Shown: positions 8,909-50,775, counted from the stretch's first letter. The stretch is DNA of 64,000 bases from Azolla caroliniana (GCA_043228905.1 JBHGNT010000006.1:16492001-16556000); one strand, 5' to 3'. Notes: a model not told the origin generated them from the sequence alone. Made by a program: numbers and translations.

Positions 8909-11900
8909 GTAGAAAAACTTGAAGAGACTATTGTATCACTACAAACAAGGATCAAGTACTCAAGGGACTCACAAAGAACCCAAGATCGGACTTCCTATGA
9001 AATTTGATGGGACCCAATCTTAGTTCGTTTTGGCCTACATAATGATGTCAAGGACTTACTCTTAACTTTCCCCGAAGAGCCAAAGTCATTGACAGAAGCA
9101 ATTAGTCGCGCAGTGCGATGCGATAACTACCTTTTCGAACGACATTCGGAATGTCAGTTCTAGATGCCAAGGACAAGATCAGAGCCCACCTACGCCTCAG
9201 ATGTAGCAAAACCTTTTCGAAGTGAGTCATATAATGTGTTTCTAGCAAATACTCCAACTCCGATGGAAATCGACACCACACATCGTACCGGAGCATTATC
9301 GGAAGAGAAAAAGCAGTGACACCGAGCAAATTGACTATGTCTCTATTGCGGTGGACTAGTGCATATTGCGGTGAACTATCCCCATAGGCCAAGAAGACAG
9401 GGAAACCAAATAGTTGCTAGTTCTAATTCTACTAAACTCGAGTCTGTTTCAGTAGGAATATATGATAGTCCTAATAGTACTAATAACCCAAACCTTTCAA
9501 ACAAATTTGAAATCCTTAGTCAACTAGAAGAAGAGTTAAACGATTAAGTCTAGCCAAAATAAGAGCCATTTGGTTGGACAGCCCTAGATCTGTGCAGCCC
9601 ATTAGTGGTTCCATTTCCTCTAAGCAAGTTAGCAATGTGTTCTTAGCTCAAGTAATGGTTAGTACTAAAAGTACTCATCTAGTACATGTCTTAACACTCT
9701 TAGATTCCGGATCCAACTCTTGCTCATGGATAGGATATTTGCCCAAGTTCATAAGATATCCCTAAGAAACCTTCCTCTCCAACCGACGCACCCATTTTCT
9801 TTGTCAAGAAAAAGGATGGATCATTTCTTCTCGTCGTAGACTATCGCGGCTTGAATAAGGTCACCAACAGGAACATGTATGCACTTCCCCTTATCTCAAG
9901 TCTTTTAGAACGGATCAATGGTGCAAGGTTCTTCACAAAGATTGACTTACAAGGAGCATATAACCTCGTACGGATCTGACTAGTAGATGAATGGAAGACC
10001 ATGTTCCACACCAGATATGGGCACTTCGAGTATATGGTCATGTCATTCAGTCTCACTAATGCACCAACAGTCTTCCAGCACATGGCAAATGATATATTCT
10101 GAGATCTCGTGGATTTTCATTTGATCATCTATTTGGATGATCTACTGGTTTATTCGAAGACCCAAGAAGAGCATGATTCTCATGTACTATTAGTACTAAA
10201 ATGGCTTCGAGAACATGGTCTTTATGCAAAACTAGAAAAATGTAGCTTCGAGTGCAACCAGGTGAAATTTCTGGGCTATGTCATCTCCTTGGAAGGCATC
10301 TCTATGGATCTAGCTAAGGTCAAAACTGTGATAGAATGGCAAACTCCATGTTCGTTGCGAGATGTGCAATGCTCTTAGGCTTTGCCAATTCTTACCGCAA
10401 GTTTATACATGATTACTCAAAGCTTATTCCGCCTCTCACACAGCTTACCAAGAAGGGGCAATTGTTTGTTTGGTCTAGAGAAGCGAACATGGCTTTTCAG
10501 AGTCTTAAGAAGGCATTCACATCAGCTCCTATTCTAACTCATGTTGATCCGGCAAAACCTTTCATCATTGAGGCAAACATGTCAGATTTCGCTTTGGGTA
10601 GCATTTTGTCACAATAAGGCAATGATGAAAAGCTACGAGGGTTTTCGATATACCATTGGATTCCCACATTATCGATACCATACGTGAGGACTTGAAGATA
10701 GATGCTTTCGCTCAAGCCATTCTAGCACAAATTGATCCCTCTTGGGTATCATGTTCACAGTCACAACAACTAGGTACGGATTATCGACAATTCGAATGTC
10801 ATGATAGATTACTATTCTTTAAGAAGCTTTTGTATGTTCCTAATGGTTCTTGTCGCCTTCGAGTAGTCCAAAATTGTCATGACACATATACAACTAGGCA
10901 TTTTGGTAGTACTAAAACGTTAGATTTAGTACAACGATCATTCTGGTGGCCCCATATTCGACGCTTTGTCGAAGATTATGTTCAGACATGTGATACATGT
11001 TGCAGAGCAAAGATGCCAAGATATCATCCATATAGTTTTTTGGAACCATTACCAATTCCAAGCAAGCCATGACAATCCATTGCTCTAAATTTCATCATAG
11101 ATCTTCCAATGTCTAAGGGATTCAATGCGATCTTAACAGTAGTAGATCAATATACGAAGATCAATGCCATGTACTACGGTAATCACTAGTGAAGAAACCA
11201 CCGAAACTGTCATGCATGCGGTATGTCGGCATCATGACCTCCCCAATAGTATCATTAGCGACCGTGGACCCCAGTTCGTCTCGAAATTCTGAAAGCACCT
11301 CTTCAAAATGCTCAAGGTCACTTGTAACCTCTCCTCCGGCTACCACCCGCAAATAGACGGACAACCAGAACGAACAAGTCAAATGCTAGAACAATATCTT
11401 CGGTGTTTTCTACGCTATCATCAAGATGGTTGGGCAGATATTCTCCACTTTGTCGAATTTGAGTATAATAACTCTGTCCACTCATCGACTAAGGTTACAC
11501 CATTTTATGCTTATACGGGCTATCATCCCTGGTGGTGTGTATTCGAAACTCCGGAGTTACCCACAAATCCTTGTGTAGAGTATCATTTGGAGCGGTTACG
11601 CAAGATACATGTGTATTTATCTACTCATTTACAACAAGCTCAACAAACACACAAGGATTATGCAGATCGTCATCAGTTTCCATCTAGTTTTAACATTGGA
11701 GATCAGGTATGGCTATTACGACGACACATCAAGACTACTCGCCCATGCGATAAATTGGATTATCGGGGATTGGGTCCTTTCCGTATTATTGGAAAAATTA
11801 ATGATTTCGCTTTTCGTCTTGATCTACCTCCACAACTACAAATACATCTAGTATTTCATAGTTCTCTTCTAGAACCCTATCAAGAAAACACTATCCCAGG

Positions 11901-12150
11901 TCGTATTAAACCACCTCCACCTCCGATCGAACTTGAAGATGGACGTGAGTATGAGGTTGCCGCCATCATCGATTCCAAGATTGCTCGCAACAAGCTCTAC
12001 TATTTGGTCGATTGGCTAGCATATAGCCCTAGCAAGCGTACTTGGGAACCAATAGAGATTGTGACCAATGCTCGTGCTCTTCGTGAAGCCTTCCATCGTC
12101 AATATGCAGACAAACCGGGTCCTCAATCCAAAACGACTTGTAACACTCGT
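8909..12150 (+). pseudogene. Chromovirus gag-pol remnant (gag C-term, PR, RT, RH part, INT, chromodomain)
   Basis: ORF fragments 10109-10378 (IYLDDLLVYS), 10336-10617, 10656-11072 and 11308-12186. Confidence 0.85.
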
Positions 12151-12453
12151 CGTTTATTATTATTTTCATTTATTATTTCACTATAGAAAATTGATGTGTA
12201 TTTCCAAATTTCTTTGGAATATTCTAGAAACTTCCGGAGTACTCCTGAAAACACTATATATAAGGAGGCACAAGGCATTATTTTGAACCAAATCATAGTG
12301 TCTTAGGAATACTCTAGAAATGTGGCTTAGGAATACTCTTGACATTTCTAGTATGTTCTAGAGAAATCTAGAATATACATGGATTTCCTAAGTGAAATAA
12401 TAAATGGAAATAATATTTTTTGTATTATAATGTATAGTTTAATACTCTTGACA

Positions 12454-13267
12454 ACACCGCGGCTTCCACGACCAAATTCTTGTATGAGCACATTTGGTGT
12501 CGGTTTGGTTGTCCTATCGAGCTCATTAGCAATCAAGGAAGCCATTTTCTGAATACGGTCAACCACGATCTCACCAAACATTACGCCGTAGTTCATAAGA
12601 ATAACATGTATTATCTACAGGCCAATGGTCTCGCGGAGTCGACGAATAAAGCACTCCATAATATCTTGAAAAAGATTGTCAACAACAACCGTACGGATTG
12701 GGACACAAAGTTGCATAGTGCCCTTGGGTGTACCACACCAGCTTCAAAACTAGCGTCCAATCAACACCATTCCGATTGGCCTTCGGCGTAGAATCCATAA
12801 TGCTTGTAGAGTTTCAGGTACCGAGTTTATGCATAGAGGTCCGCGAACGCCTTTCGGAGAGACAGTCTGAACAAATCCGCTTACAACAACTACTCGAACT
12901 GGGGGAAGACAGAGTGCACAACATGGCAATTTTGGAGCACGAGCAATGGTGGCGGAAGGCATTCGTGAACCGGTACTGCGGCACCAACGCAAATTACTTT
13001 GAGATGGGAAAATCGGTCCTTGTATTCCAAAATCGCATGGGACAGATGCTGGGAAAATTGCATTTCCATTGGATGGGGCTGTATTGGATAGTAGGAGTTG
13101 AAAATGGAACATTCGTACGGGGCACCCACGTAGGGGAAGTACTATGCCAGAAGGTCAATGGGTTCCAACTAAAGCCGTATTGGGGACCCACACCACCCAA
13201 CCCTTTCCACATCAAGACTAACAATCAGACCGCTTCCCCGTCGGAGGCGGAGGGGAATGGCCACTAA
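12454..13267 (+). pseudogene. Integrase C-terminal half of the Tat/Athila-like element
   Basis: CRFGCPIELISNQGSHF, QANGLAESTNK, GPY/F-like and VNGFQLKPY motifs; frameshifted. Confidence 0.85.
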
Positions 13268-13903
13268 TAGGGCCCACTTGTAAAAATATGTAACGATAGT
13301 GTACCATAAGGCCAACCATAACCGTTAGGTTTGAAATGAAAAAAAGTAAAAGAAAGAAAGAAAAAAAGAAAAAAAGAAAAGTCATGACTATTAAAAGGAG
13401 CACATGCACACAGTTTCCAAGAAAGGGAGAACATGCGTCCATAGGATGACTCGCATAATCTTGAACCCTAACTCCTCATCTTCACAAAAAGAAGAAACAC
13501 GCCATTTACCTGCATATTTCGGAAAACACTCCCAAGCTTTCTTCTTTTCTCGCTCTCCTCGCTCCCCCTTACTCCCCTCGCTCTTAACGTTCCCCTCGCT
13601 CACCTCATCATCACAGAAAATCCATCTTGTGAACCTTGCGTCCTAGTCGTTCCCCTCGATCAGCTCGATCGGACGACATGACGATAGATATCTCCCCCGC
13701 TATGCAACGATGGTTACACGACAAGGGCCTCAAAGGTTACATTCGGGTAGTAGAAGCTCCACCCCACTCGGACGCCTAGGATGTGGCAAGAAAACTCAAC
13801 ATCGACACAATCACAAATGCCAACATCAGGAAAAAACTGGCAAACATCACTTCAAAATCCCTCAGGGATTCTCAAACGATACTTCAGGGAATATTCAACC
13901 TCA

Positions 13904-13940
13904 AACACGTTCACGTTCACAAGTGGAAGGATCGCGCATT
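13904..13940 (+). repeat. Left terminal inverted repeat
   Basis: aacacgttcacgttcacaagtggaaggatcgcgcatt. Confidence 0.93.
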
Positions 13941-14261
13941 AATGGAAGGGTAAGGGAAATTTTAGGGGTTTTTCAATGATTTTACAAAACGTATTGATAC
14001 CAGTATCATACATGTTCAAACATACTATGAAAAAGGTTAAAAATCCACTATTTTCGTGATTTAGAAGTAACTAAAAAAAGACGAATTTCAAAAAGATACA
14101 TTCTCAATTTATATCACAAACTTTACAACCAATGTTATTTTATAAGAAACGATTTTTTAGAAATCATAAGAATTCAAAACACATGATTTTATATTACTCG
14201 ATTTGTTACAAGCGGAATGTAGTTACACTTAATAGCCAAATATACATTCATGATCACTCCT

Positions 14262-17031
14262 TTACGGAGAATCACTACTATAACTAATATACAATGACGA
14301 TTCCTCCTCATCATCCTCGGATGTACCAATCAGTGCATTATCTTCGTCATAAACCAAATGGTTTGACTCTAGATTATATGTAGCAGATCTCATTTGCCTT
14401 TGACTCGAGCCACCTTGTAGACCTGGTAATTTTTCTTTTATTATATCTATTGTTGACTTCCTTAATCGTTCGGCTTTTGTAAGTGTGATGTCGTACACGA
14501 TGATATCCACATCAGAGATATCAAGGGTCGAGGTGTTACGAATGTTTCGCTTCCTCTTCCTACCTCCCCTTCTTGTTTGGCATTCAATCATCTCCAATGT
14601 ATACTTACCTGTAAAAGCATTTGCACTTCTAGTGTTGTACAAATGAACATTTATAGACTTGATCGTGTTTTCTATTTCATGCATTAGCACTTCTAGAATT
14701 TTACCAACCCAAAATTGGTGGCCATGTGAGTTCTCATCAGCCGGCATTGCAATCAACATCCCTGCGGTGAGCTCTTGCAAATTTCCTTGCCATCTAGCTT
14801 CGGCTGCTTTGGTCATCCTTGGTCCCACATAAATGTCTCTTTGTTGTGGATGGACCAAGCTGTCATTAATCGCATTTACTAGTTGCTCCGGACTTCTATT
14901 TACGCGATCATGTTGCAGCGACCATGTGAATGGCGTTTCCAAATTCCAATTATCAACAGATACACAATTGTCTATAATTTCTTTCTGATCACTATAAAAT
15001 ACATCCCACCATGACGTGTCTTGTTGTGCGGCATATTTCTTGGCGGCCTCAATATGCTTTCTTTTTTCTTCTAAGGCTTGGAGCCATGACCATTTTTGTT
15101 CTGATACCAAGTCGCTCTGCAACTGTCCTTTCTTCTCAATTGGCATTTGCTTAGCTCCATGGACAATTGTACTCGGCATACAAAGTAATAACTGTTGTAG
15201 AAGATGTTGTAGAAGATGAATATTGTTTGGCATACAAAAGTGTAGAACCACTTATTCCATTTTTCTTTATCAAAAAAATGTGATTGAAACTTATATTGTT
15301 TAACTGAGCAAGCACTTTAACATTCCCACCACCCCCATCTAATATATATCTCTTAAAGTCATATACCTCCTTCAAGTGTAACACTTTTGGGCGTGGTGTA
15401 TAAGCATCACAAATGACATCAAATAGTTTAGGTAAAGTAAAAGCATCATGCCGAGACAACTATCTGGAGAATGTGCTAAACATCTGATCTATATGGTCAT
15501 GTGTGTGGCCAACCAAAAGGAAATTGACTTTCACTTTCCTAAACAATTCTAGGTTGACCAACATACTTAGATAGCCAAATACAATTGAATTTTTGTTCTC
15601 TCTAGTAGTATTGTCCAATTGAATGTATATAACAGGGGGGAAAGGTTGTCCCCAAGACATCAAAACTCGGTGAATCACTGTAACTGTTAGGTTAGGGTCA
15701 TTGTGAACATTGGGGTAAGTAATGAAGACGTGAGGTCGAACAGACCTATTATAAGCCAAGCATCCCACCAAGTGCATTTGAACAAGGCACTCATCATTGA
15801 CATCTTTGGGGAGCCTCCGCATATGCGGCAAGCATGTCTTCTTCTGGTCCATGCCATCTATCATTAAGCACATGTATTGTTCGGGCCTCTTCAAACACTT
15901 CTCCCTATGATGCATCGCCTTCCTTCGTTCTAAGGATTGTGCCTCACGATGCTCTTGTAGTAACTTCTTACTCGTATCCTTTTCCATTGATGTCTTTGCA
16001 CCTTTAGCCAAACTTTTAAGATTTGCACAAATGGAGCAATACCCCATACGTACTTTACGAGGAATAATAACATTTGAAAACCGAGCTCTCCATAATCTTG
16101 TGAATTGGCTATATGTGATCGACTTATTACGTGAGCCCAGCATATCAGATCGATAGACATCATAAACTTCCCGACGTGTATAATTATCAGAAAGATGCAT
16201 CCTACCTGTAGTGGGCATTACTTCACAATTTAACTGAAAGTAAGTTTTCATCCAGCCAATAGCTAGTCTTCCAATTGCACCTTTCATACTTGGAACCTCT
16301 TTACAATTGAGCATCTGATCCCCGCTAAGTAGACGTTGTTGTACTCTATGTAGCCGCATGTTACTAACACATAACGCAATTTTGAATGCAACTCTACATA
16401 TCTGTTGCGCATGGAAGATATAATACTCGAATGATACTTTGATCCCCGTACATTTGTCAGATACTAGTTGCATATGTGACCCGAGGTAAGTGTCTTGCTC
16501 ATCACCGGTCATCGAAAAATAGTATCGCCTTAATTCTCGCAACTTTGATTTTCCAATCATAGACATACAACCACGGGCACAACATATTTTGTTGACATCA
16601 AATCCAATCTGTTTATCTGATGTCACCAAGCTAAATCTAACTAGACGAATTCTTCGTGGGATTCTTCTAATATGCATAGGGCTCCCAGATTTCTCTTCCT
16701 GCATAGAGGTTGGTGTAACCTTGTTACAGTCTAATTCTTTGCTGTGACCATCGCCAATGTTATTCAATGTTTCCTGGGCACTTCCTTCATTCTCGGTATC
16801 TTTATTAATATCGTATTCTTCAATAGAGAACTCTTCACATGTGTCATTATTTACATTCCCTGTAGATGAGCTCAGACAATATTCTTCGATAGAATATGGT
16901 GAGTCGGTCGACAGACAATATTCTTCAATCGAATATGGTGACTCTGATGACAAACAATACTCTTCAGTAGAAAACGATGGGTCTGATGACAAACAATATT
17001 CTTCAATCGAGAACGGTGAATCTTCACTCAT
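14262..17031 (-). pseudogene. DUF7869/Sola-like DDD transposase, disrupted by a premature TAG (15460-15462) and a frameshift at ~15190-15220
   Basis: Motifs MIDGMDQKKT, IQLDNTTRENKN and FLLVGHTHDHIDQMFS; Cys clusters (CCARGC, CRVAF, CSIC); beta-rich SH3/Tudor-like C-terminus (GMLIAM..FWVGKILEV..INVHLY). Lies between the TIRs. Confidence 0.8.
16800..17025 (-). repeat. Coding tandem repeat, ~36-39 bp (SIEEYCLSS-like, x5), at the transposase N-terminus
   Basis: Seen in the translation: FSIEEYCLSSD / FSTEEYCLSSE / YSIEEYCLSTD / YSIEEYCLSSS / FSIEEY. Confidence 0.85.
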
Positions 17032-17874
17032 GGCTTAAGGTCTAGATAGGGCTCTCTAAGTTATGGGCTTAGGGGAAAGAAAAAAACTAATAAGCTCCTC
17101 TCTAAACATATACTCCTCTCTAAACATAAACTTCTCTCTAAACAAAAGCCAAATCAATAGAATGTCTATATTATGTAATATTCTATTAATACAATACATC
17201 AAAAAATTATTTTTAATAAAGTAATTGTACTTAAAATATCAATTATTATATAAACTAGATCTATATAAAGTTAAATCAAGTAAAATATAAAACTAATCAT
17301 TAACAAGCCATGAATATGTTGGATTAATGTTAAAATCATTGGCTAATTAATGGCACCCATTTTGATATAGAACGTCTCACTCATTGGTTCTTTAATGCTC
17401 ACCATTTTAAATATTAGACTTATCAATCATTGGTTAATTTATGCCCACATCTTTAATACACAACATTTGAGAGTCATAAAAATTGTTGGTTTTAGTAATC
17501 AATCATTGGTACATTCATGAACCTCTATCATTGTCTCATTCATAACCTTTGAAGTCATTGTAGGTTGTTATGACTATAAAAGATTGATCAATATGATAGT
17601 TTGACTTTGTAATCATCAATACAATCATAAGTTTCTCTAGTTAATGTGACTATGGTTACCAACTAACTATCCTCAAAGTTACCAACCTTGGTTAAGGTGA
17701 CTATGGTTACTTTAACCAATGTGTTCAATCCCTATAAATAGGAAGACCTCGTCATATTTCACTCACCAGAGCGTACAGAGCGTACAGAGCACACAGAACC
17801 TAGAGAGCACACAGAGCACATAGAGCACAAAGCACGAAAGCGCGATCTCCGCCTCCACTTCCACACGATCAAAC
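17032..17874. promoter_or_regulatory. Divergent promoter region; TATA box (cctataaata, ~17731-17740) for the methyltransferase gene
   Basis: AT-rich spacer between head-to-head genes, repeated tcattgg (CCAAT-like) motifs, TATA box ~135 bp upstream of the ATG, and agagc(a/g)(c/t)ac repeats in the putative 5' UTR. Confidence 0.55.
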
Positions 17875-20800
17875 ATGTCTTCAAAGAGAATCGAGCGCGA
17901 GGACTCCAGGTAGGCCTCTGACACTGTGGACATTTTTGTAAATATGTTTCGTTTCTCAAGAACTCAATACCCCGTATCGAGTTCATGTATACAATACAAA
18001 TATTTATACATGAACTCGATACGGCGTATCGAGTTCATAATTTAATTTTGCTTTTTATACAGGAACTCGATACGCCATATCGAGTTCATGTTTAAAGTGT
18101 AGGTTTTAAACAGGAACTCGATACGCCGTATCGAGTTCCTGTTTAATGTGTAGGTTTTAAACACGAACTCGATACGCCGTATCGAGTTCGTGTTTAAAGT
18201 GTAGGTTTTAAACACGAACTTGATACGGCGTATCGAGTTCCTGTTTAAAACCTACACTTTAAACATGAACTTGGTACGGCGTATCGAGTTCCTGTTTAAA
18301 GTTTAGGTTTTAAACACGAACTCGATACGCCGTATCGAGTTCCTGTTTAAAGTGTAGGTTTTAAACAGGAACTCGATACGGCGTATCGAGTTCCTGTATA
18401 TAAGAAGGCTTTGAGAGAGAAAAATTGTATTTTTGGGGTAACAAATAATTTTGGGATGGAAAAGATATCAAATTGTCTGGCAAAATCAGTCTTTTTATGT
18501 TGGCTTTCCTTACTTTAAAAAAAAAACATGCTCTAATTATAGGTGTTTTATGACCTACTTTAGCTTAAAATAGTAGAAAATGATCCACAAATTGCCTTTA
18601 CGATAGCAAATTCTCGTCAATATAGGTTTGTAATCTATATAAGTCATACCTACTATTTAAAAGAATATATAACCCTTTTTACTTATTACGATATATATTT
18701 TCTAGGTTGAATAGCCCTGCCTATAATAGATTTTTGAATATAGGACTGCTCCTGGGAACTGTTCTTCATGTTAATATACAACCTTAATCTACGTGACTAC
18801 CTAACTTATGTTTTTGCATATACTTTCTTAAATAGGTCGTTTGAAAACCTGTCGGACCGACCGGTGAAGAAAATAAAGCTTCGCATACAAGGTTCTCCAA
18901 TCGAAGCCCAGACCAAGGTAGCTCCTGAGACCATGAAGAGAGGAAACAAGCTTCTCTTTAACGAAGAGACAAAATCTCAGCCACATAGTGATGTTAGCCA
19001 AAAGAAACTTGTCGCCGCTACTGGAGGTGAAGACCTTCTTGACCGAGATCTAACGGACAAGGAATGGTGTATGCAATATGTCGACTCAAAGAAAAAAGTC
19101 GTATTGTATACAGCAAAGAAGAAGGGTGAGGGGCAACTTGGAAAGGAAACCCCATTTATGTATGGCCGTATTCTACGATTTGACTACGAAGATGCAGATT
19201 CAGCCAACATACTGGTAATGATAGAGTGCTCCAAGGGGGTACGTAAAGTGTTCCTTTCAGAAGACCTTTTAGTAAAAGAATCTTGTGGGCCAGAAGTGTT
19301 CAAAAAAGCACTTGATAGCTCACAAAACCTTATTGTTACCTTGAGGCCTTATATACAAGGCCATGTAACTCTAAGAGATGAAGTGCCCTCCCCATTGAAG
19401 CCAACAAAAAAGGTTTCCAAAGTCCAGTCAAGACTAGCAAAGAAGAAGACAATGAAAATGTCGGATACGGATTCAACAAGTGAAAACGAAGAGGAGGATA
19501 ATAAGGGGACGCCAGGAGCTGAGCTGGCCTCGGGTGTTTTGTCATCCGAGCAGAATAAAATAAGGAGAGAGTTAATGCAACGGAAGCTGGTCAGGAAAGG
19601 GCAAGTATTTAATTTGCCTATAACACACATCCATCGGCCCCCTATTGATGAAAAAACAGGTCGAAGACCACTTGAGATTAGAGAGCCTCACCGCATACAT
19701 GTTCAAAATCTCAAGAAAAAAATGAAAATTAATCCTCATGCCACTGTGGTGCCTTTTATTGTTATGGTGGATCCTGAAGAATGTGAAACCATTGAAGATT
19801 TTGATATTAGAAAGCATGATCAATATAATTATTTTGTCATTGGTGGATCACATTCAGCAGAGGCACGTCGGCAACTTGTGAGAGAACATCCAACCACTTT
19901 CTTCTTCAAGTATGCCGAGTGCAAAATTTATGTTGGGCTCACAACCGAAGAGGCTAAGTTGTTGGCATGGGACCATAATAATGATAATGACTATAGGCAG
20001 AAAATGTCGTCCATTGAGCGTATACGGTTCTTCCACCACGAGTATTTAGATGTGAAACAAAAGTTTGGTGTGAAGTTACATCCAGGCCTTCGACGTCAAT
20101 GTCTGCATGAAGTCGGCATTGTGGTAGATGATAATGTTAGGTCCGATGGTCTTCGAAAGTATGAGTCTTGGTTTCAATTGGCGTTTAGAGATGGAGAAGT
20201 ATGGGACCTACAAGATCAAATCTTCTCAATGTGGGAGAATAAGGAGGTAAAGGGTCAACGACAAAAGAAATGTAGGGTTGACCCTCAACTAGAGTTAAAG
20301 TCACAAGCCGCCAAGAAAATTGACTTGACAATTGAAGAAGCGGCAGATGACATGAAGCTGTCTCTATGGAGAGCGATGCAAGGTATTAAGGATGAGCAGC
20401 TTCTTGTGTCGGTTTTGTCAAGGGTTGTGGCTAAAGATTTAAGCCTTGAAGAAATGGTCGCTGAGTTCAATAAGTAAGTCTCTCAAATACTGAAATTGTA
20501 GTCTATCTAGTGTAATTCAAAGTTCTAATCTTGATTTTTAATTTTACAGTCATAAGGTGTACATGAAGATCCAAGAAGTTATGATGAAACAACTTGGATG
20601 TATAACTTGGGAACAAGTGACCGGGGATTATCCTCTAACGTCTTCGTATAAGGCATTATCAGAGTATTTTATTGCATTCAAGGATTGGGTTAGTATTCAT
20701 GTTTTTTCATTACCCTTTCATCATATGTAGAGCTTGTATAATAATACCTGATGTCCTATTGCTTCTATTAGAAACCGTGTCGAGGCAAGAAACAAGGAGA

Positions 20801-22061
20801 AGTTAAGGATATACACGATTTCCCTACATCCTTCGTTGCACATCTCGAGCGAGCCAGAAAAGAAAAGGATCGTCGCTTAGTCAAGGCGTACGAAATGGAG
20901 GAAGATGGCTCCTTTAAAAAATTTAGCCACAAAAAAGATATTACAAGAGATCTTTACTACAATGTGGTTTGCGGTGATGTCATCGACTTGATCCAGAAGG
21001 TGCCAAAGAAGGAATATACGCTAATGATTGCGGATATTCCTTACGGATTTCGAATGGCTGGGTCATCATACGACGATGAACCGTTTAGGTTTAAACAATT
21101 GGAGAAGATGGTCAAGGATTTCGCTGAGCTAACGACCGCATCCTTGTGGCGAATAGTTGTCTTTCATAGTATGGACCAAGGGTACTCGGTAGCTCAAGCT
21201 TTGAGATCTCGTTGCCATGGCATCGAGAACCTTGCATGGTAAGGATTATTTATAGGTGTCTTTCACTATATTGCATTTCTTAAGGTTGTTGAATCTATTC
21301 TTAACTCGATGAATTATTTTTTATAGGATCAAGACCAATGTAAATAGAGGGCCAACTTTTCGGTTCGTTAATGCCATTGAATACATAACGGTTGGCTACT
21401 TCGATGAAATTAAGAAACAGAGAATCAAAGAGCATTCTAATGAAGTGGGAGGTTCAAATCTGTTGGTATATCCAGCAGTGACTCGGAAATTGCGACATGT
21501 CACCACGACAGAACGGGGACTTGTCAACCCATACCAAAAACCTCAGCGACTTATGATGTGCTTGATCGAGATGTTTTCTGTCGAAGGAGACTGGATATTA
21601 GATCTCTTTTTTGGCACAGGTATTCCTCGAACTAGGGTAACGATCTTGAGATAACCAATCACTTTTTTTTCGTTTGACAACTAAATCTTCTTGTTACTTA
21701 CATCACAGGAACTACGTCAGCATGTGCATTGAAGCTGTTTAGAAATACAGTTGCATTGGAGAAGGACGAGGACCAAGTCATATTTATTAATATGCGGATT
21801 AAGTCTTTGTGGGAGTGCCCAGACCAGGATGAGGAGGTCGGTGCAAAGAACCTCGCCAATACAGAAAGGTTTCAACCTGCTTCGCGAGAGCCTATTCCTC
21901 CGTTAGCCGGCGAACCGGGGGAGCTAATAGAGCTTGATGATGAGCTTATAGAAGATATTTCGTTGGCTCGGCTAACAGGGGAAACCAATGCACGTATAGC
22001 CGAAGACAGTTCTACACAAGATGATGAAGAAAATGACGTTGATGAATTGATTGCTATGTAA
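17875..22061 (+). CDS. ParB/Srx-like domain fused to a beta-class N6-adenine/N4-cytosine DNA methyltransferase, ~974 aa, six exons (17875-17909, 18836-20473, 20550-20688, 20772-21238, 21327-21619, 21709-22061)
   Basis: All five introns are GT-AG with compatible phases, giving 2925 nt without internal stops. MTase motifs in beta order: GDVIDLI, IADIPYG (IV), W-IKTN..EYITVG, NPYQKPQRLMMCLIEMFS.EGDWILDLFFGTGTT (X/I), ALKLFRNTVALEKD. ParB-like VPFIVMVD..YFVIGGSHSAEARRQL..LAWDHN. Confidence 0.85.
17960..18400. repeat. Array of nine 25-bp palindromes (gaactcgatac-NNN-gtatcgagttc) alternating with 26-27-bp units, period 51 bp, in intron 1 of the MTase gene
   Basis: Copies start at 17960, 18012, 18063, 18114, 18165, 18216, 18267, 18318 and 18369. 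Spacers 3-8 are Ntgtttaaa-gtgtaggt-tttaaacaN. Confidence 0.95.
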
Positions 22062-22486
22062 TAGACTCTATAAAGAATATGACACTGACGATTTGTTAAG
22101 ATTTCACATTATTAATACAAATTTTGGGTTTTACCTAGTGGATTCTATTCTTTATAATCTTCTATATGTTTCAATTTTATTTTTATATACTTGATTAGTA
22201 GATTTATGACATTGGTTTCACCGCGTGCATAGCTGACTACCAAACTTATGGAGAAACATGAACTAGTTTAAATGGAGGCTGATTTTGGTCCAAGCTAACC
22301 TTAACAGAGCATGGCCCTATAATTGTTGCCATGACTGTCCATGTTGTTATTATGGATCTTTGTCTTCTATTGTTAAAACTATTATGTTTCTATTCCATTG
22401 CTGCTTAGATTGTGTAGTGTGTTGATAATGGTTCCAGTTGCGTTATCGTTCGGAGTTTGATCTTGTGTGAATCACCTAAGCAATAG

Positions 22487-22732
22487 AGTAGATCAATTTT
22501 AAATACAGGTATGAAAGCCTAATAGGTTTGTTATTTCCACGACATTATCCTAAAGTTCACTGCCTTACATTGTGCACAATTATATACACATATGGTTTGA
22601 TCCCATATGAACAAACTGAGGAATAGATTAGATCAACTTTAAATACAAGTATTGAATACTTTAATAAGTTAGTTATTCCAATCACTTATCCTAATATGCA
22701 CTATCCTACATTTTCCACAATTACATACATGC
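22487..22732. repeat. Diverged ~105-bp direct duplication (period ~140 bp) in the right subterminal region of the transposon
   Basis: tagatcaa(t/c)tttaaataca...ttatcctaa...cacaatta(t/c)atac occurs twice. Confidence 0.65.
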
Positions 22733-23004
22733 ACGTATGGGTCAAAGTATAAATTATATCTCATTTTATTAGTATGGATACAAGTACACCTCATATTTTT
22801 GTAAAACTTACCTAATTAATATAAGTCTTTAAGTTAGTGTTTCCCTTGTCGCACAGTAGTGCCATATTGAGCCATAGTTGAACTTTATTATGCCTACATT
22901 AACTTATCAACATGTCTAAACTTGCATGATTTCTAATGATCTCCACTCGTAGATCTATCATGTATTTTTATATTTGCTTCGTTTTAAGAAGATTCTACAA
23001 GTGG

Positions 23005-23041
23005 AATGCGCAATCCTTCCACTTGTGAACGCGAACGTGTT
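23005..23041 (-). repeat. Right terminal inverted repeat
   Basis: aatgcgcaatccttccacttgtgaacgcgaacgtgtt; its reverse complement matches the left TIR at 35/37 positions. Confidence 0.93.
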
Positions 23042-24482
23042 CTCAACAAAAGCATAGATAACATCGGAGGTACCTAACCCATTCTTTCGCAAAGTGGCTA
23101 AGTTTTTATTGGAAGTAGGGTGCGTACATACCAATGCCTACAGGATGCCGAAGCAGAAAGCGGGTATTGTCATCGCTACATTTCAGGGTCAAGCCATTGA
23201 CTGGGGAGTCATCACGGGGCTAGTGTTACGAGAAGGACTGCACACGTTTCAGGTTGGGAAAAAGCTTCGCCCCATCATCCAGCAGTACTTGACAGTACTA
23301 TTTCTCCCATGTGGCCTCCACGCCTCGGAATCGGACCACCATATAACCACGCCACGTTCATCGAAATGGAAATTAGCTGAACTCACAGTACTGGAATGGG
23401 AGGATGAAGAAAATCCGTGAGATGTAGAAACCTCACAACCACAAGACGAGCAACAACCAATCCTGGTTCAATCTGTTGAATGGAAACCAACAGATTCACA
23501 GATTAGGCCAGAGACGGCACCCGAGAACCCGAGACCCAAACGTAGACGACGGGACAAGAAAGACAGTCGCGGGCTAGTTATAGACACAACCCCACGAGTT
23601 GTAAACCTTGCTACGATAGCGGCCGACACAACATTGGAGTTGATTTTCAAACCTCGACCAATATTAATCGGGCAGTCGCAACACGGTAAGGACGCAAGGC
23701 AGTGAAGGTACTGCAAAACAAGCTCGATGCCGAAATAGCCGAACAAAGGCCTAGCTGAACACACTCAACGAGGAGGGAACCAAGAAAGAAGGAACCATCA
23801 TGGTGTTAAGAGAAGTTGCACAGAAATGGCATGCATGGTATAACGAACAACTCGAGCATGAGCGCCAAAATACCAGAGATGTTGAAATACGCCTCAACAA
23901 TGAGATGGGCCGACTAGAGGGGCTTCATGAGAAGGAGTCTCAGATATTGTCACAAATGAAAATGCATTATGAAGAAGCAATGGCGGTCAACAAACACAAA
24001 ATCGAAAACCTCAAAAAGGCTCTTGAGGATTTGCAGGCCCACACTCGCTTTAACATGGAACATATCCGCCCCCTTCTCCACACAAAACGAGAGTGGTTTA
24101 CGACCCAACTCCGAGCGGCCATGGACAGAGGTTGGGCTGGATGCGCGAAGTAGGCGGCGGAACTCCACACTTACAGGGTGGATTGGGAGAATCAGCGAAA
24201 GGACGGGAAAGATTTTTCCACGTTGAGCGAGGATAACATTGCTATGGTCTACGAAGACCTGATGTAGAACTACCAAGCCTTGGCTGACTGCCACACCGAG
24301 GAAATAGCACAACCAATAGAAGATTTCGGTGAAAGCTAGGATGAGACATTACGCTAACTGCACAACATTAGCAACGAACAATGAAGAGTGGAGGAGACGA
24401 AAAAGGCAGAGGCCATCATCCTTCCAGACAGTGACTCGCGGAGCGGCACGAGGGTCCGCATAAGAAAGAGGAAGTTGTAGAG

Positions 24483-43219: not shown

Positions 43220-43612
43220 TAAAACCGGAAACCAGCCGGTAAGCAAATCCGGAAAACGGGTTCGGTAAGCAAATCCGGAAACCGGCTAGTATGCAATCCG
43301 GAAACCGGCAGGTATGCAAAACCGAAACCGGCCGGCAAGCACACCGGAACCGGAACGGGTATGCAAACCGGAACTGGCCGGTAAGTAAAACTGGAACCGA
43401 CTAGCAAGCAAAACCAGAAACCGGCCGGTAAGCAAAACCGGAACCGGAACCGGAACTGGCAAGCAAACCGGAACCGGCCAACATCAAAACCGGAACCGGA
43501 ACCGGCCAACATCAAAACCGGAACCGGCCGGGAAGCAAAACCGGAACCGGCCGGGAAGCAAAATCGGAATCGGAACCGACCGGCAAGCGAAATTGAACCG
43601 GCTACCGGACGA
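43220..43612. repeat. AACCGG-rich minisatellite in the 5' LTR of gypsy G
   Basis: Tandem aaaccggaaccggccggcaagc-type units. Confidence 0.9.
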
Positions 43613-44332
43613 GGTTGGACGCGGACGGACGAAAGATTGGATCATGCAACAAACTAAAGTAAAGTGAAGAGAACTAAAGTAAAGGCCATGTGGACGCAAG
43701 CAACTAAAGAAGGAGTGCATGGAAAAAGTAAAGGTCATGTGGACAGTCACATGCAACCAAAAGAAAAAGCTAGGCAACTAAAAGTAGAGGCCATGCAAGA
43801 AAAAGTGGAAAGGCTATGATCAAGGGAGAACTCCATATTTATTCCATTTTTTTTCCTACACTAGGACTCACTCTCCATATTATCTAAATTTTTTTTTCTT
43901 TTGTTGGGGAGCTCTCTTATATTATCGAAGCCAATAACCCTAATCTTCCATACGGAAGCTATCTCTCAAGTAAACCATAATTTCCATATGGAAGCAATCT
44001 CTCAAAATCCAAAATTCCTTGTCAAAGCCATATCACTCAAGAATCATAATCTCTTATTTCCTCTAATCTATTATTCTAATCATCTCTATGAGATAAGACT
44101 TTTGTAATCCCAATCTAGGGATTGATTGTAATCTTTCTTTCCCTTTTATTAATGAAATTTGTTAATCTTTCTCATTTCAGTTAATTCTTAGTACATAAAT
44201 ACACGAATTTGATATCCTCTAGACAAAGGCCCCGGGGTCTTGCCTCAACGTTCACGTATCCTCATTGTATTTTCACGACATCTTTGGTGAACCCGACGTG
44301 AAACGAGGCAGTAGGAGGATATCAAGTACGAA

Positions 44333-46512
44333 GATGACTTCGACAAGTGGAACTCAAGGAGAAGAATTGACGAAAGGCATGGTGTCCATCGTCGAATTCA
44401 TGCTGAAAGAGAGATCGGGAGGCTTTAGTCCACAAAGCTGTTGACCGAACTGTGGAGACAGTTGGAAGATTCGGTGGGAAGAACATCACAAATTTCCTTG
44501 CTACCTACTGGAATGAGATGCAACAAAGAGATGTCCATGATCCAAAACAAATTTCAAGCTTTAAGCGTTTGGTAGAACCCGGGATCCGTGAGCGCATGAC
44601 GGAGATCCAAAACGAGCATGCAACTTGGGCGGAGTTCGAAAGGGCTCTTCTCACTAAATACATGCTTGAAGACGCATCGTGGATGACTCGGCATACGTTA
44701 ATGAATTGGATCGAGAAGAAAGGGAAGAATCTGTGTGCATCGGGAATTTATGCCGAATTCGTCCAGAACTACAACCGACTTCCGAGTGTTGAGCAACGAG
44801 TTCTCGACGGAGATAAAGTCTTACTATTCCTAAAGGCAATGGATGCGAAAGATCGGCGTGAATTGGGTAGTTTCTTGGAGGACGAAACACAACCAAATGG
44901 TTTGGTAGCGGACTGGGCGGCGGTGAAGAAGGCTTGCAGGTGTTTTGATAAGCGGCAACAATGGCAAGAGGAAGTTGAGGTCGAGAATCCACAATTGTGG
45001 AAGAAGGCACCTATGACGATTGAGCCTAGTAAGCCGATCAACAATTTCGACAAGAAAGCAATGGAGGAGTCTATAATCGAAGAGCTCTCCAAGAAGTTTG
45101 AAGCGGTATCGCTAGCCAACTTAGGTCGACGCGGGCCCAAGGGAAAAGAAGCGTATAGATGTGTGTGGTGCGATAGCTTTGTACACTCACGAAGGGAATG
45201 TGCTGACTTGCAAGATGCGATCCGCAAGAATGTCGTCTATTTGGATGGCAACATGATTCACTCGAGCGAGACCCGGAAGCCACTACGAGTGAACTTCGGA
45301 AGAGGTGGGCTGAAAAAGATTGTAGAAGAAGAAGATGCAAGGCATGTGGAGGCTATGCACTATGCCGCTTCGGCTGGGATACGAGTTGGAAAAGAGAATC
45401 TTAAAATGATCAAGCCAGGAGCTGGGTTTTGGCCAATGGTCTTCGAGTGCGAAGAAAAAGGCAAAATCAATTCAGAGGATCTAAAACTTGCTGACCGAAA
45501 CGTGCGACGAGCAACCGGATGGTCAGATCCAATTGACGAAAACACAAGCTTTGCGGAGGTTGTGTGTGACACCTATGAAGCCCTTGTCGAAGAGAAGAGG
45601 AAGAGAACCGGTGAAGAAGATGGCACATCAAAGCGACCTAACACGAGGAACGGAGGGAAAGAAGGGCCAACCCAACCTATCCCAAGAAAAGAGATTGGTG
45701 AAACAAACATGAAGCCCGGTGGATCGAGCCAACCTTCTCGGATGGAAGTCGAAGAATCAACGAAGAAAGGAAAAGAACGAGTGGCACCGACTTACAAGCT
45801 AAGGTCGGATATAGAACAAACAACTAACTTGCAGAAGGTCCTTGAGGAGAAGGTTTTAGATAGTCATGTCGACCTTACCTTGAGAGAGCTACTTGGGATC
45901 GCGAAGAAGGAGTTCCATGATACTATCGTGGACCTTATTAAGAGGAAGCGACAACAATTTGATGAAGAGGAGGTGAAAACAAGTGCCATAACCATGGCAA
46001 GATCGGAAGAGGAGGAAGAAGAAGAAGTGGTGGCGGATAGCCATTACTCGCGGCCTCATTGGGCAAGAGAGACAACGGAGACACCGGTGAAGATTGGGGA
46101 GAAGAAAGAGACCGTGGTCGCTTTGATTGACCATGGCTCAGAGATCAACCTCATGTCGACCGAGTTCTACAAGAAAGGAAGATGGCCGATTAATACAAAC
46201 CACGGATGGAAGATTCGAGTGGCGACGAAGGCTACGGAGGACTTGTACGGAGCTTGCCCCAACGTTAAAGTCACGATCGGGGATGTAGAGATTGATCAAC
46301 ACTTCTTCGTGCAAGACTCGGCTTCACATCCCATCATCCTAGGACAACCATATATAACATCGTCCCGGATGGAGACCAAGGTGTTCGATAATGGAGCGGC
46401 CTTCGCGCGCGTCAAGAGTCTTGATAGTAAAAGATCCGTTCAATTCCTGACGGTGCGAGCTAATCATGAAAGGAACCGAGATAGCCTTGGAGGCGAATCC
46501 TCGGATTTTTAA
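44333..46512 (+). CDS. gag-protease of gypsy G (5' lesion near 44440; long ORF 44452-46512)
   Basis: CVWCDSFVHSRREC knuckle and ALIDHGSEINLM protease. Confidence 0.8.
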
Positions 46513-49500
46513 AGCGGACTATTGAAGCATGGGGCACAAATAGTCCGAGCAATCATAAGTCCCCACAAGGAAGCAAAGTGCGTGGATTGCAAGGAGAAGC
46601 AACATGCGTCACACCTGGCGGCGCATGCAAACTTAGACTACTCAACAAGAAGGAAAAGTGTCAGATACAAGACTTCGAGGAGGTGCTGAAAGAAGAAAGC
46701 ATAATCGAAGAAGAAGAATTCGTGTCATATATTCTGGAGGAAGCCTCATTTAACGACACCATCGGCGAAATCGAGGAAGTCGTGGATTTGAGCTATCCTC
46801 ACCATCAACATGTGATTTCGGTTAACTCCGTCAACATGTATACTATCATCGATGAATATCATCGAGGCATCTTGATAGAGGAAGTCGAAGTCAACACAAA
46901 ATATAAAACCATGGATAGGAAGATCAAGCCAGTTGCAGTTCCGCTACCGGAAGATAGCTGGCAAAAGATGAAGGAAGTTGCAAAAGATCCCAGCTTAAGG
47001 AACCCAAATACAATTGGTCACGTCTTCACTGAAGAGACGAAGGGAAAGCTACGAGTTGGAAGGGAGGATTTCCTCCTCCCTGAAGAGGAGCGGATGTTTC
47101 TTGGAATTCTTGAAAGACATGGGAAGGCTTTCGCATTTTTCCCACAAGAAATCAGGAGTGCTAATCCAAGGACGGTAGAACCGATGGTGATCTTCACGGT
47201 GCTGCATGTGCCTTGGAATTTGAAACCGATACCGGTTCCGAGAGCACACCTACCGAAGCTGATCGAGCTCTTAAAGGAGAAGGTGAGGATGGGAATTCTA
47301 GAACCGTCGAATGCTCCTTATTCTAATAGGTGGTTCACGGTGCCAAAGAAGAATGGATCGTTGCGATTCATTCAAGATCTTCAACCCGTCAACAAGGTGA
47401 CAATTCGGAATGCTGGCATCGGTCCGAGTGTGGATGAATTTGCCGAGGCGTTTGCAGGCCGGTCCATCTACTCCATCGACGATCTCTACTCTGGCTACGA
47501 TAAATTCCAGTTGGTGGTCGATAGTCGTGACATTACAACCATGAGAACTCCAATCGGGTTGGTGCGGATGTGTACCTTACCTCAAGGCGCAACGAACTCG
47601 GTGGCTCATATGGTGAATGCCATGAACAAGGTCTTGAAGGATTGCATCCCGAATATCACGATGCCATTCTTAGATGATATTCCGATAAAAGGATGTTCGG
47701 ATGAAGAGAAGGATGAATCAAAAGATAAGGATGGATGTAGAAAGTTTGTCATGGATCATATGAAAGATTGCGAGAAGGTGCTCCAAAGGTTCGAAGATGC
47801 GAATTTGACATTTTCGGGAGAAAAATCCGCATTCGGGCAACCGGAGATCCTGGTGGTAGGTCACTTGTGTGGAGTATATGGTCAGAAGCCTTCGCCATCC
47901 AAGGTGAATGCAATCCAAGACATGAAAGAAGAATGTGTAACCCAAACGGAGGTTCGAAGATTCCTTGGAGCATGCGAGTTTTATCATATTTGGATTCCAC
48001 ACTACGCCCACATTGCTGTGAGCCATTATATGGTCTACTAAAGAAGAAGCGGATGTTCGAATGGACGAACGAGCATACAATCGCCATCCGAAGGCTGAAG
48101 AAATTATTGATGGAGGCACCTGCATTACGGAAAGCGGACTATTCATACGGCAAGCCCGTTTTCGTGACTGTGGATACTAGTCCAATCGGAATTGGATGGG
48201 TTATCAACCAAGAAGATGAAGATTGCAACCGATATGCAATTCGGTTTGGCACGAAAGTGTTAAGTGACAGGCAAAGAAGCTATGCCCAAGTGAAGAGGGA
48301 GCTATGGGGGATCGTCTCAGCAATCAAATCTGATCGTGATTACCTTATTGGAGCAGAAGTCATAATTGAGACAGATTGCCTACCAATTTTGGGTATGATA
48401 TCTGGTTGTAATACACCGGATATTGCCATGTTGCGTTGGATTGCATATATCAAATCACTCAACCCGGAGATCCGTCATGTAGCTGGGAAGCGTAATGTCG
48501 TTGCAGACATGCTATCACGAGCGAGATACGACAGAGAAGAAGATCGACATTCTGATGAAGATGATGTTGGCCTGGATTTCTTTGCAAGTTCCTATGCTCG
48601 GGTGTTGATTACTTTCATAGAAGAGGACTACGAAGGCGAATTCGTGGAGATCGGGAAATACTTGAGTTCTCTCCAAAAAAATGAATCATGGTCGACGGAA
48701 GACTTCCATCGAATTCGGAAGAAAGCATACAAGTATTTCCTTAAGAATGGAGCTCTTTGGAAGCATGCAAAAAAGAATAATGGGACTCCGATGAGAGTTG
48801 TCTGCGAGCTAGAAGACCAACAAAAACTAATGTCCAAATTTCATGATAGTGTTTTTGCAGGCCATTGAGGAATATGGGCTACGTTTGCGAAGCTTAAGGA
48901 GAAATATTGGTGGTCGGGCATCTACAAAGATGTAGTAGCTTATGTGGAAACATGTAAGGAATGTCAAATGTTTTCGAATATTCGCCATCAAGATGGACTT
49001 CATCCGACTTACCCGTTGGCTATGCATTACAAGTGGATGGTGGACATAGTGATGATGCCAATGGGACAATGGCAGATGAAGTATCTTGTGCTCGTGAGAG
49101 AGGATCTTACCAATCTAGTTGAAGGGCGAGCATTAAGAACTAAGGAGACATCATCGGTATGTCGATTCCTTCTTGAAGATGTTATTTGCAGATATGGATG
49201 CATCGGTAAGATAGTGGCTGATAGAGGCGAGTGGGACGCCAATGAAGCTAGAGAATTCTTCCTGAGGATGGGAATCAAATTATCTCTTACCATGGCGTAT
49301 AATCCGGATGCAAATGGGAAGGTGGAACGTGGACATGGAACAATTGTGAAGGCTCTAGTGAAAGCTTGCCATGGGAAAATAGGAGAATGGCCATGTCTAT
49401 TGCCATTTGCATTATGGGCTGACAGGACTACTCATAGCACGGTGACGGGATACATGCCGGCAGAGCTCATATTCGGACAAAAGCCAATAATGCCGGTAGA

Positions 49501-49960
49501 ACAAAGTATTATTTCATGGTTTGCATTGCCATGGCAAGATGAGATAAGTAGAGAAGATCTTCTAGCATTGAGGATTCGACAATTAGAGCGGAATTTGGAA
49601 GATGTAGAGGTGGCTAAAGCGCGGCTAAAGAATGCAAGGCTAAAGAACAAGAAAGACTTCGATAAACGACATCGACTTCGGCCGAGGAAAATCGTTGAAC
49701 GAGATTGGGTGCTAGTCTATGACAGTAGCCTAGATAACCAACATAGTACGGCTCGAAAATTCTCACAACAATGGTTTGGGCCATATGTGGTGAAGAAAGT
49801 GGAAGATAATGCAACATATCATTTAGTAGAACTGGATGGTACACCACTTGCCTTGCCAATTGCCGGTAAAAGAATCAAGATCTTCAAGAGAAGAGATAGA
49901 ATGGAAATTGGATTCGAAGCTTTTGACGATTCAGTCTTAAGCATCGATGAAAAAGTATAG
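46506..49960 (+). pseudogene. pol (RT-RNase H-integrase) of gypsy G, -1 frame relative to gag; one frameshift (~48020) and one stop (48866)
   Basis: MCTLPQGATNS, PFLDD, VDTSPIGIG, integrase core, WFGPY. Confidence 0.88.
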
Positions 49961-50338: not shown

Positions 50339-50775
50339 AAAACCGGAAACCGGCCGGTAAGCAAATCCGGAAAACGGGTCTGGTAAGCAAATCCGGAAAA
50401 CGGGTCTGGTAAGCAAATCCGGAAATCGGCCGGTATGCAAAACCAAAACTGGCCGGCAAGCAAACCGGAACCAGAACGGGTATGCAAACTGGAACCGGCT
50501 AGTAAGTAAAACCGGAACCGGCCGGCAAGTAAAACCAGAAACCGGCCGGTAAGCAAAACTGGAACCGGTCGGCAAGCAAAACCAGAACCGGAACCGACAA
50601 GCAAACCAGAACCGGAACCGGCCAACATCAAAACCGGAACCGGAACCGGCATGCAAACCGGAACCGGCCGACATCAAAACCGGAACCGGAACCGGCAAGC
50701 AAACCAGAACCGACTGGCAAGCAATATCGGAACCGGAACCGACCGGCAAGCGAAATTGAACCGGCTACCGGACGA
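50339..50775. repeat. AACCGG-rich minisatellite in the 3' LTR of gypsy G
   Basis: Same units as in the 5' LTR, with different copy number and order. Confidence 0.9.

Follow-up and report, generated by a model that had tools for sequence, protein, structure and literature searches.

A Sola-like transposon of Azolla caroliniana carries a predicted ParB-methyltransferase gene with an array of candidate binding palindromes in its predicted first intron

The window analysed in this work is a 64,000-nucleotide stretch of Azolla caroliniana DNA (GCA_043228905.1 JBHGNT010000006.1:16492001-16556000). The gene and the palindrome array described below lie inside a transposon with terminal inverted repeats (TIRs), a feature missing from an earlier, sequence-only reading of the locus. 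The whole element occupies 13904-23041 (9,138 bp). Its left TIR (13904..13940, plus strand) is 37 bp long, has an AACAC terminus and is 95% complementary to the right end, with which it pairs as an inverted repeat (23005..23041, minus strand). Identical 4-bp target-site duplications (TSDs) of CTCA, to which no strand is assigned, were found at 13900..13903 and 23042..23045, and the left-end junction was common to all 25 loci compared. The gene content consists of two genes placed head-to-head on opposite strands: a Sola-like DDE/D transposase (DUF7869; 14262..17031, minus strand; PF25273, E 5e-37) and a cargo gene for a ParB-methyltransferase protein. The element is a cut-and-paste transposon that carries this cargo gene together with an intronic palindrome array. 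The name Sola-like is provisional and based on the motif pattern of the transposase and on resemblance to Sola1-1_Ec32; the traits seen were the DUF7869 match and, as in Sola1-1_Ec32, a 4-bp TSD and AAC termini. Its C-terminus (window 14450-14760, minus strand) contains a conserved W-[VI]-[GA]-K-I...V-H-W-Y block that resembles a BAH/Tudor-type chromatin domain. The transposase is a 927-codon open frame in intact copies; in the window, a stop codon (15460-15462) and a frameshift (near 15200) interrupt it, so this copy could move only in trans.

Other mobile DNA was seen around the element. To its left (10103-13267) lie degenerate pol fragments of Gypsy type, covering RT, RNase H, integrase and a chromodomain-like part, and two blocks sharing tandem repeats (43221-44005 and 50339-51168), likely the LTR pair of a retrotransposon, flank long ORFs at 44407-49960.

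A first look at the genome gave 972 candidates for the left end, 1192 for the ParB region and 1179 for DUF7869, or about 1,000 first-look candidates of the element. For a copy census, 38 of 40 left-end matches were retrieved (left out were the window itself and one match on a short contig); these copies were thus chosen by the left end alone. Twenty-eight were complete within 10 kb, and each of these retained the two gene regions, in some cases with small internal deletions; 25 of them had an exact 4-bp TSD, and the other three had one mismatch. The array was kept in all 38. Seventeen aligned copies were 95.6-99.1% identical, and the cargo gene was open in four of them. Across the copies and families considered here, the element measures 7.7-9.4 kb with TIRs of about 37 bp. 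Between families, the transposases are 50-57% identical overall. Named relatives were a Ceratopteris scaffold (72%), Ginkgo (48%), Riccia and Chara. These relatives, the introns and the CG/CHG mutation footprint described below all point to a land-plant host.

The cargo gene was predicted on the plus strand. A TATA-like box predicted from the sequence lies at 17732..17739, and a similar box was found 225-300 bp ahead of the first array site in 10 of 13 loci examined. Predicted exon 1 (17875..17909) has an ATG and encodes 11 codons plus 2 nt; a short ATG...AG|GT exon also stands ahead of the array in most diverged families compared. Predicted intron 1 (17910-18835) contains the palindrome array, and by this gene model the array is intronic to its own intact gene of 974 codons. 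Predicted exon 2 (18836..20473) holds a 577-codon open frame, and predicted exons 3-6 (20550-20688, 20772-21238, 21327-21619 and 21709-22061) encode a beta-class amino-methyltransferase. Together the six predicted GT-AG exons give an uninterrupted 974-aa product from the ATG at 17875 to the stop at 22061, and the 17 aligned copies, like most of the diverged families compared, share the predicted splice sites and the short exon 1. In comparison with L077, dN/dS was about 0.04 in the ParB N-terminal domain (NTD), the DNA-binding domain (DBD) and each of the two methylase exons. Families further removed showed saturation of synonymous sites, and their domains were still 48-77% identical, with the ParB NTD and DBD at 69-77% between families. 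By these coding-sequence comparisons, the cargo gene is under purifying selection.

The start of predicted intron 1 contains further motifs. The motif TGTACGGAC was conserved 20-30 bp into the intron at L084, L079, L091, L140, L151, L101, L106 and L107. The window family has its own form of this motif, CTGTGGAC, at about 17920, and two further families have AAAGATTCCTAAAGAT repeats at the start of the intron.

Exon 2 contains the segment for which a ParB/Srx-like fold had been proposed. The quoted peptides were found (PFIVMVD at 19752, VIGGSHS at 19836 and LAWDHN at 19962), 1.2 kb from the array. An AlphaFold2 model of 19542-20471 had a pLDDT of 86, and Foldseek placed Noc, ParB and KorB in its top rows, with 15 matches at E<=0.001; further matches included PadC and pNOB8 ParB, and the alignments spanned the NTD and the helical domain. 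The predicted fold thus supports the proposal. By VIA-align, the model matched Myxococcus ParB with Z 10.7 (166 aligned, rmsd 12.2) and Caulobacter ParB with Z 10.2 (100 aligned, rmsd 2.3), and a whole-chain alignment to KorB (8qa9) gave Z 9.6 over 189 residues (rmsd 4.5). We assign 19599..19991 (plus strand) to the predicted ParB/Srx-fold NTD, in which R294 and N393 are kept and GERR is changed to GSHS, and 20001..20471 (plus strand) to a helical domain that aligns with the DBD of ParB, KorB, SopB and Spo0J and has a predicted HTH at about 20088-20183. The helical domain alone reached Z 3.5-5.2 (KorB 1r71 4.7, SopB 3.8, Spo0J-parS 4umk 5.2), which is within the range of common helical arrangements and counts against the DBD assignment. 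Pfam gave no ParB match on exon 2, and a profile search of solved structures with alignment A1 retrieved no ParB; the ParB assignment therefore rests on the fold.

Upstream in the same exon, a folded PH-like N-terminal domain was predicted at 19032..19382 (plus strand, pLDDT 91). A structure search returned no match for it at E<=0.001. Its best structural match was the SANTA domain of M18BP1 (Z 6.3, rmsd 3.3, 95 aligned; the next match had Z 4.5), and the likeness of the modelled domain to this centromere factor is a weak lead. A Tudor or chromo reader, which was also considered for this domain, was not found in the structure comparison. The nearest ESM Atlas clusters of 19572-20471 were fungal DUF3723 proteins (0.96, with 176 features shared and PF12520 carried by 78% of members). 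DUF3723 occurs as Starship cargo, so that mobile elements of fungi may likewise carry cargo of the ParB-like kind. Neither a tblastn search of phage records nor a scan of viral contigs with P0047 gave a prokaryotic or viral relative.

A two-copy prediction scored 0.56 for a homodimer formed through the ParB NTD, and the best of three controls scored 0.00; contact agreement was at least 77% and partner pLDDT at least 76. In calibration on microbial structures, 21 of 30 solved homo-pairs and none of 23 single chains reached the mark; for eukaryotes the figures were 17 of 29 homo-pairs and none of 30 single chains. The predicted interface involves the NTD and residues 143-155. This pass may stem from the predictor's memory of solved ParB dimers.

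We examined the nucleotide-binding motif by mapping the protein onto Caulobacter ParB residues by motif spacing. The sequence-only reading had noted an arginine-to-serine change at this motif; the change is present, and it is family-wide rather than special to the window copy. The GERR equivalent is GSHS in the window and G[NSGC]H[STG] in most homologs. Caulobacter E102-R103-R104 thus becomes S-H-S here, and across 51 homologs the equivalents of R103 and R104 are His and Ser/Thr/Gly, not Arg-Arg. The equivalents of R60 and N136 are retained, as probably is that of R139; in alignment A1, positions G101, G102, H104 and N146 show at least 90% invariance. For Caulobacter ParB, R103A and R104A are described as abolishing or weakening CTP binding (PMC8367383). 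Since both GERR arginines are replaced throughout the family, canonical CTP-driven sliding and spreading, as suggested earlier for this protein, is not supported.

The 3' exons encode a methylase domain assigned by PF01555 (E 3.7e-7), a family that includes both amino-methylation chemistries. Motif IV, DIPY, at 21033 (aa 692) precedes motif I at 21601 (aa 854), which is the beta-class order. Motif I reads FFGTG in the window copy and FSG in 15 of 17 aligned copies, a Ser-to-Phe change. DIPY was found in nearly all loci compared, and the motif IV forms seen were DIPY, DFPY, DAPY and DPPY. In a 13-homolog profile search against solved structures, M.MboIIA was the best match (E 6e-10), with DpnA-like, M.RsrI and CcrM enzymes also retrieved; N4-cytosine enzymes ranked lower (E 3e-4 and 0.36). 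The C-terminal part is thus predicted to be a beta-class amino-methyltransferase of the adenine type. DPPY-type beta enzymes are capable of 4mC too.

The array lies at 17960..18393 (no strand assigned), beginning 50 bp into predicted intron 1. Tandem Repeats Finder (TRF) reported 17960-18397 with a period of 51 and 8.6 copies, and we located nine palindromic 25-bp cores, GAACTCGATACGSCGTATCGAGTTC, starting at 17960, 18012, 18063, 18114, 18165, 18216, 18267, 18318 and 18369, in agreement with the nine tandem palindromes originally described. The units form nested inverted repeats. The 23-bp core pattern had 3911 exact matches in the genome and its reversed control had 0, which indicates that the pattern is not due to chance. 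To define the candidate site, we surveyed the 41 of 101 loci with at least 1.7 kb of sequence upstream of ParB. Homologous genes generally carry such arrays: CGATRC-NNN-GYATCG was present at the same place in 39 of the 41 loci, L159 and L133 having no site. Over the 41 loci there were 258 matches at the 3-bp spacer, versus 2 at the remaining eight spacers in the 0-8 range. Diverged families keep AAnYCGATRC-NNN-GYATCGRnTT at spacings of 31, 41 or 51 bp. Among 19 family representatives, which were hand-picked, with the site motif defined after the same loci had been inspected, the AA four bases beyond the search motif was kept in 18-19, the next base and the centre took three to four bases, and only CGAT/ATCG was invariant. 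TCGA and GATAC/GTATC had been assigned to each arm of the window array and put forward as target motifs; each occurs in 15 of the 18 arms, not in every one. TCGA was rejected as a family-wide methylase target because it is not conserved across families, some having CCGATGC half-sites without TCGA; GATAC is replaced by GATGC in 11 of 19 families.

Inter-site distances clustered at 30-34, 39-43, 49-54, 63 and 71-73 bp. The best period was 10.2-10.4 bp (p=5e-5, 28 distinct distances), a p value that is optimistic given a motif defined post hoc, kinship between the families and longer distances that are built from shorter ones. The number of sites varied from 4 to 14 per array in the 17 aligned copies, and some families have only 1-3 sites. 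Covariation between array and protein across subfamilies had been named as a check, and by eye no clean pattern was found between the recognition helix and the GATAC/GATGC half-site; kin share both traits. In summary of the site itself, the conserved spacer, half-sites and spacing fit a dimeric reader with a conserved DNA-binding surface, as judged from the aligned sequences.

Two further observations concern the arrays. Among ten copies not closed within 10 kb, four (L058, L059, L061 and L206) were interrupted in or right beside the array, and this region is possibly insertion-prone, the numbers being small. Five of six genome sites followed were in these elements, and the sixth was an orphan array at L193:4430-5630 (G000:C1 about 5338700-5339900). 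It is a diverged array of the same core with an AAT centre, lies within an AT-rich fold-back block, adjoins a LINE-like element and has no transposase or ParB match within 5 kb; it is possibly a non-autonomous relic or a dispersed target.

We then examined the mutational footprint of host 5-methylcytosine (5mC). C-to-T change was about 0.03 at CG and CHG throughout the element versus 0.003-0.006 at CHH in most regions, so that the CG/CHG rate was about 5-10 times the CHH rate; a low CG rate at the left end was disregarded, as it reflects copy selection. Within the array, the rates in 17 aligned copies were 0.029 at CG and 0.025 at CHG, matching the rest of the element. Lasting protection from 5mC was not seen in these 17 copies, the array included. 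The footprint indicates that host 5mC covers most copies for most of the time; self-marking, if any, would be transient or confined to active copies.

The reading we prefer, with a probability of about 0.5, is that the array is a landing pad for the ParB-methylase, which methylates adjacent element DNA without canonical CTP sliding. Each predicted dimer would read one AAnYCGATRC-NNN-GYATCGRnTT site, and sites about three, four or five helical turns apart would align the dimers along the same face of the DNA, an arrangement like that of F-plasmid sopC. Tethered in this way, the methylase would write N6-methyladenine (6mA) in the surroundings of the two divergent promoters, acting through proximity or bridging and not through a canonical sliding CTP clamp, and this mark may help element expression in some life-cycle window despite host 5mC. 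The parS-like loading site of the sequence-only reading is retained in part: the anatomy fits a dimer-binding site, with a homodimer predicted by modelling, but CTP-driven spreading is not retained.

The array may instead be an operator, at which dimers repress or time their own promoters in a KorB-like manner while the methylase acts elsewhere (at the ends, on the excised intermediate or on target DNA) or serves as a switch at the sites themselves. In support, the array starts about 230 bp beyond the TATA-like box and lies about 930 bp from where the transposase begins, the best fold matches include KorB and Noc, and the varying site number per copy is what a tunable operator might show. It leaves unexplained why the methylase and the DBD stay in a single conserved polypeptide from Chara to Ginkgo. 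We regard this reading as unlikely.

Another possibility is a nucleotide-gated sliding clamp: the dimer would load onto DNA at the array and carry methylation over the whole element. The protein has the full ParB NTD and DBD architecture, the predicted interface is placed on the NTD and residues 143-155, and the kept R60, N136 and probably R139 with the invariant A1 positions suggest a conserved pocket. The R103/R104 equivalents, however, are replaced in 51 homologs, and both are reported to be needed for Caulobacter CTP binding; DNA-bound proteins are also reported to stop ParB spreading (PMC8367383), nucleosomes would likely do the same, and the footprint of host 5mC is even from one end of the element to the other. 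A clamp of this kind is distinctly unlikely. We hold just as improbable the broader picture of a repurposed bacterial centromere machine, in which phased-array loading and a clamp with a rewired pocket would drag the methylase along, and a private 6mA domain would keep about 1,000 copies mobile.

The transposase or a host factor might bind the array as an internal cis enhancer of transposition, with the ParB-methylase acting otherwise. The presence of the array in 38 of 38 copies, with no short internal-deletion derivative among them, suggests a cis requirement, and the transposase core is 73-77% conserved between families, so that conservation alone leaves the transposase a possible binder. 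Against this, the AAnYCGATRC half-site is absent outside the array within the element, including the TIRs and subterminal DNA, and the TIR interiors, which contain no array site, differ between families while the core stayed. In red algae, moreover, inverted-repeat arrays are described as adjoining the ParB gene in several transposase superfamilies. The enhancer reading is one to which we attach little weight, and we infer that the ParB fusion fits better than the transposase as the candidate reader of the array.

With the same tethering, the enzyme could write N4-methylcytosine on the CG of the invariant CGAT/ATCG and block host 5mC there. PF01555 spans both chemistries, the invariant core contains a CG, and N4-methylcytosine is reported in Marchantia sperm; on the other side, motif IV begins with Asp in all its forms (DIPY, DFPY, DAPY and DPPY), adenine enzymes came first in the profile ranking, and array CGs mutate like 5mC sites. 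We hold this version to be very unlikely. A neutral fold-back satellite hitch-hiking in the intron is hardly credible: its nested inverted-repeat units could self-amplify and the orphan array L193 exists, but the spacer is fixed, and the AA and half-sites are conserved, despite saturated synonymous divergence while centre and flanks change, and the spacing is helical.

The landing-pad reading has precedents. The brown-algal element Sola1-1_Ec32 of Ectocarpus is described as carrying a gene for a ParB-like protein with an N4/N6 methyltransferase opposite its transposase, and self-binding and self-modification have been proposed for it (PMC12477816). As described, the two elements share an opposite-strand gene for a ParB-methyltransferase (1104 aa there, 974 here), a 4-bp TSD and termini starting with AAC (AACCG there, AACAC here). 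They differ in that Sola1-1_Ec32 is said to span 21.5 kb, to have TIRs of 282 bp and to exist in 2 intact copies, whereas the present family has elements of 7.7-9.4 kb with TIRs of about 37 bp, in many full-length copies, and a land-plant host with CG/CHG methylation. The term 'palindrom' does not occur in the text of PMC12477816, which thus defines no site for that element. In red algae, the Plavaka accessory genes PAG2 and PAG3 are reported in a study of Bostrychia as ParB-like transposon cargo beside tandem inverted-repeat arrays, a layout that its authors compare with parS and for which they propose self-modification (bioRxiv 10.1101/2025.02.11.637652). In that EnSpm/Plavaka element, a 2OG oxygenase is the fusion partner of ParB, and the adenine methylase, fused to SET, has a gene of its own; here a single ParB-methylase fusion has the array in its own predicted intron. 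ParB-HTH methylases have also been described in chlorophytes and chytrids (PMC4738411). The self-marking design is therefore already in print as a hypothesis for algal transposons.

Our literature searches found no land-plant ParB-methylase transposon or array; the available text of PMC12730594 mentions neither Sola nor moss, and a term search in that of PMC12695648 gave no match. Repbase (Sola1-1_PPa), Bao et al. 2009, Iyer et al. 2011 and the Bostrychia supplements may cover such elements.

In layout, the element resembles sopC/SopB. F-plasmid sopC is described as 12 repeats of 43 bp with a 16-bp inverted repeat (PMC3177203), compared with nine of 51 bp and a 23-bp inverted repeat here, and the predicted ParB NTD, HTH fold and dimer recall SopB and ParB as described in PMC8367383. 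The element is not a member of ParABS: it has no ParA, its GERR arginines are missing, a methylase is fused, and it resides in eukaryotic chromatin. LTR and DIRS retrotransposons that carry DAM share with it a prokaryote-type adenine methylase, and higher 6mA and carrier transcription are reported for them (bioRxiv 10.64898/2026.05.21.726589). These are retrotransposons, and the abstract mentions no site array, nor the accessible text ParB, Sola, land plants or moss.

In its proposed purpose, the element is like the VANDAL elements of Arabidopsis, in which the accessory protein VANC is reported to target tandem repeats inside a plant DNA transposon and alter its methylation (PMC5735166). It is not a VANDAL, having a DUF7869 transposase and a ParB-methylase instead of MuDR and VANC. 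Moreover, VANC causes 5mC loss and its targets are said to vary considerably between families (PMC5735166), whereas the present elements have a predicted methylase and a conserved core. From its sequence, we regard the element as a land-plant member of the Sola1-1_Ec32-type ParB-methyltransferase transposons with a defined candidate site. The algal proposals, as far as their accessible text goes, give no binding site or activity; here the candidate site is defined to 23 bp, and the idea becomes testable with one polypeptide, naturally occurring variants of the site (GATAC/GATGC, TCG/CCG) and numerous full-length copies in a plant genome. If the landing-pad reading is true, a land plant would have an adenine mark that is addressed by sequence and written by a transposon; the family would be a second plant self-marking system beside VANC and possibly a targeted methylation tool.
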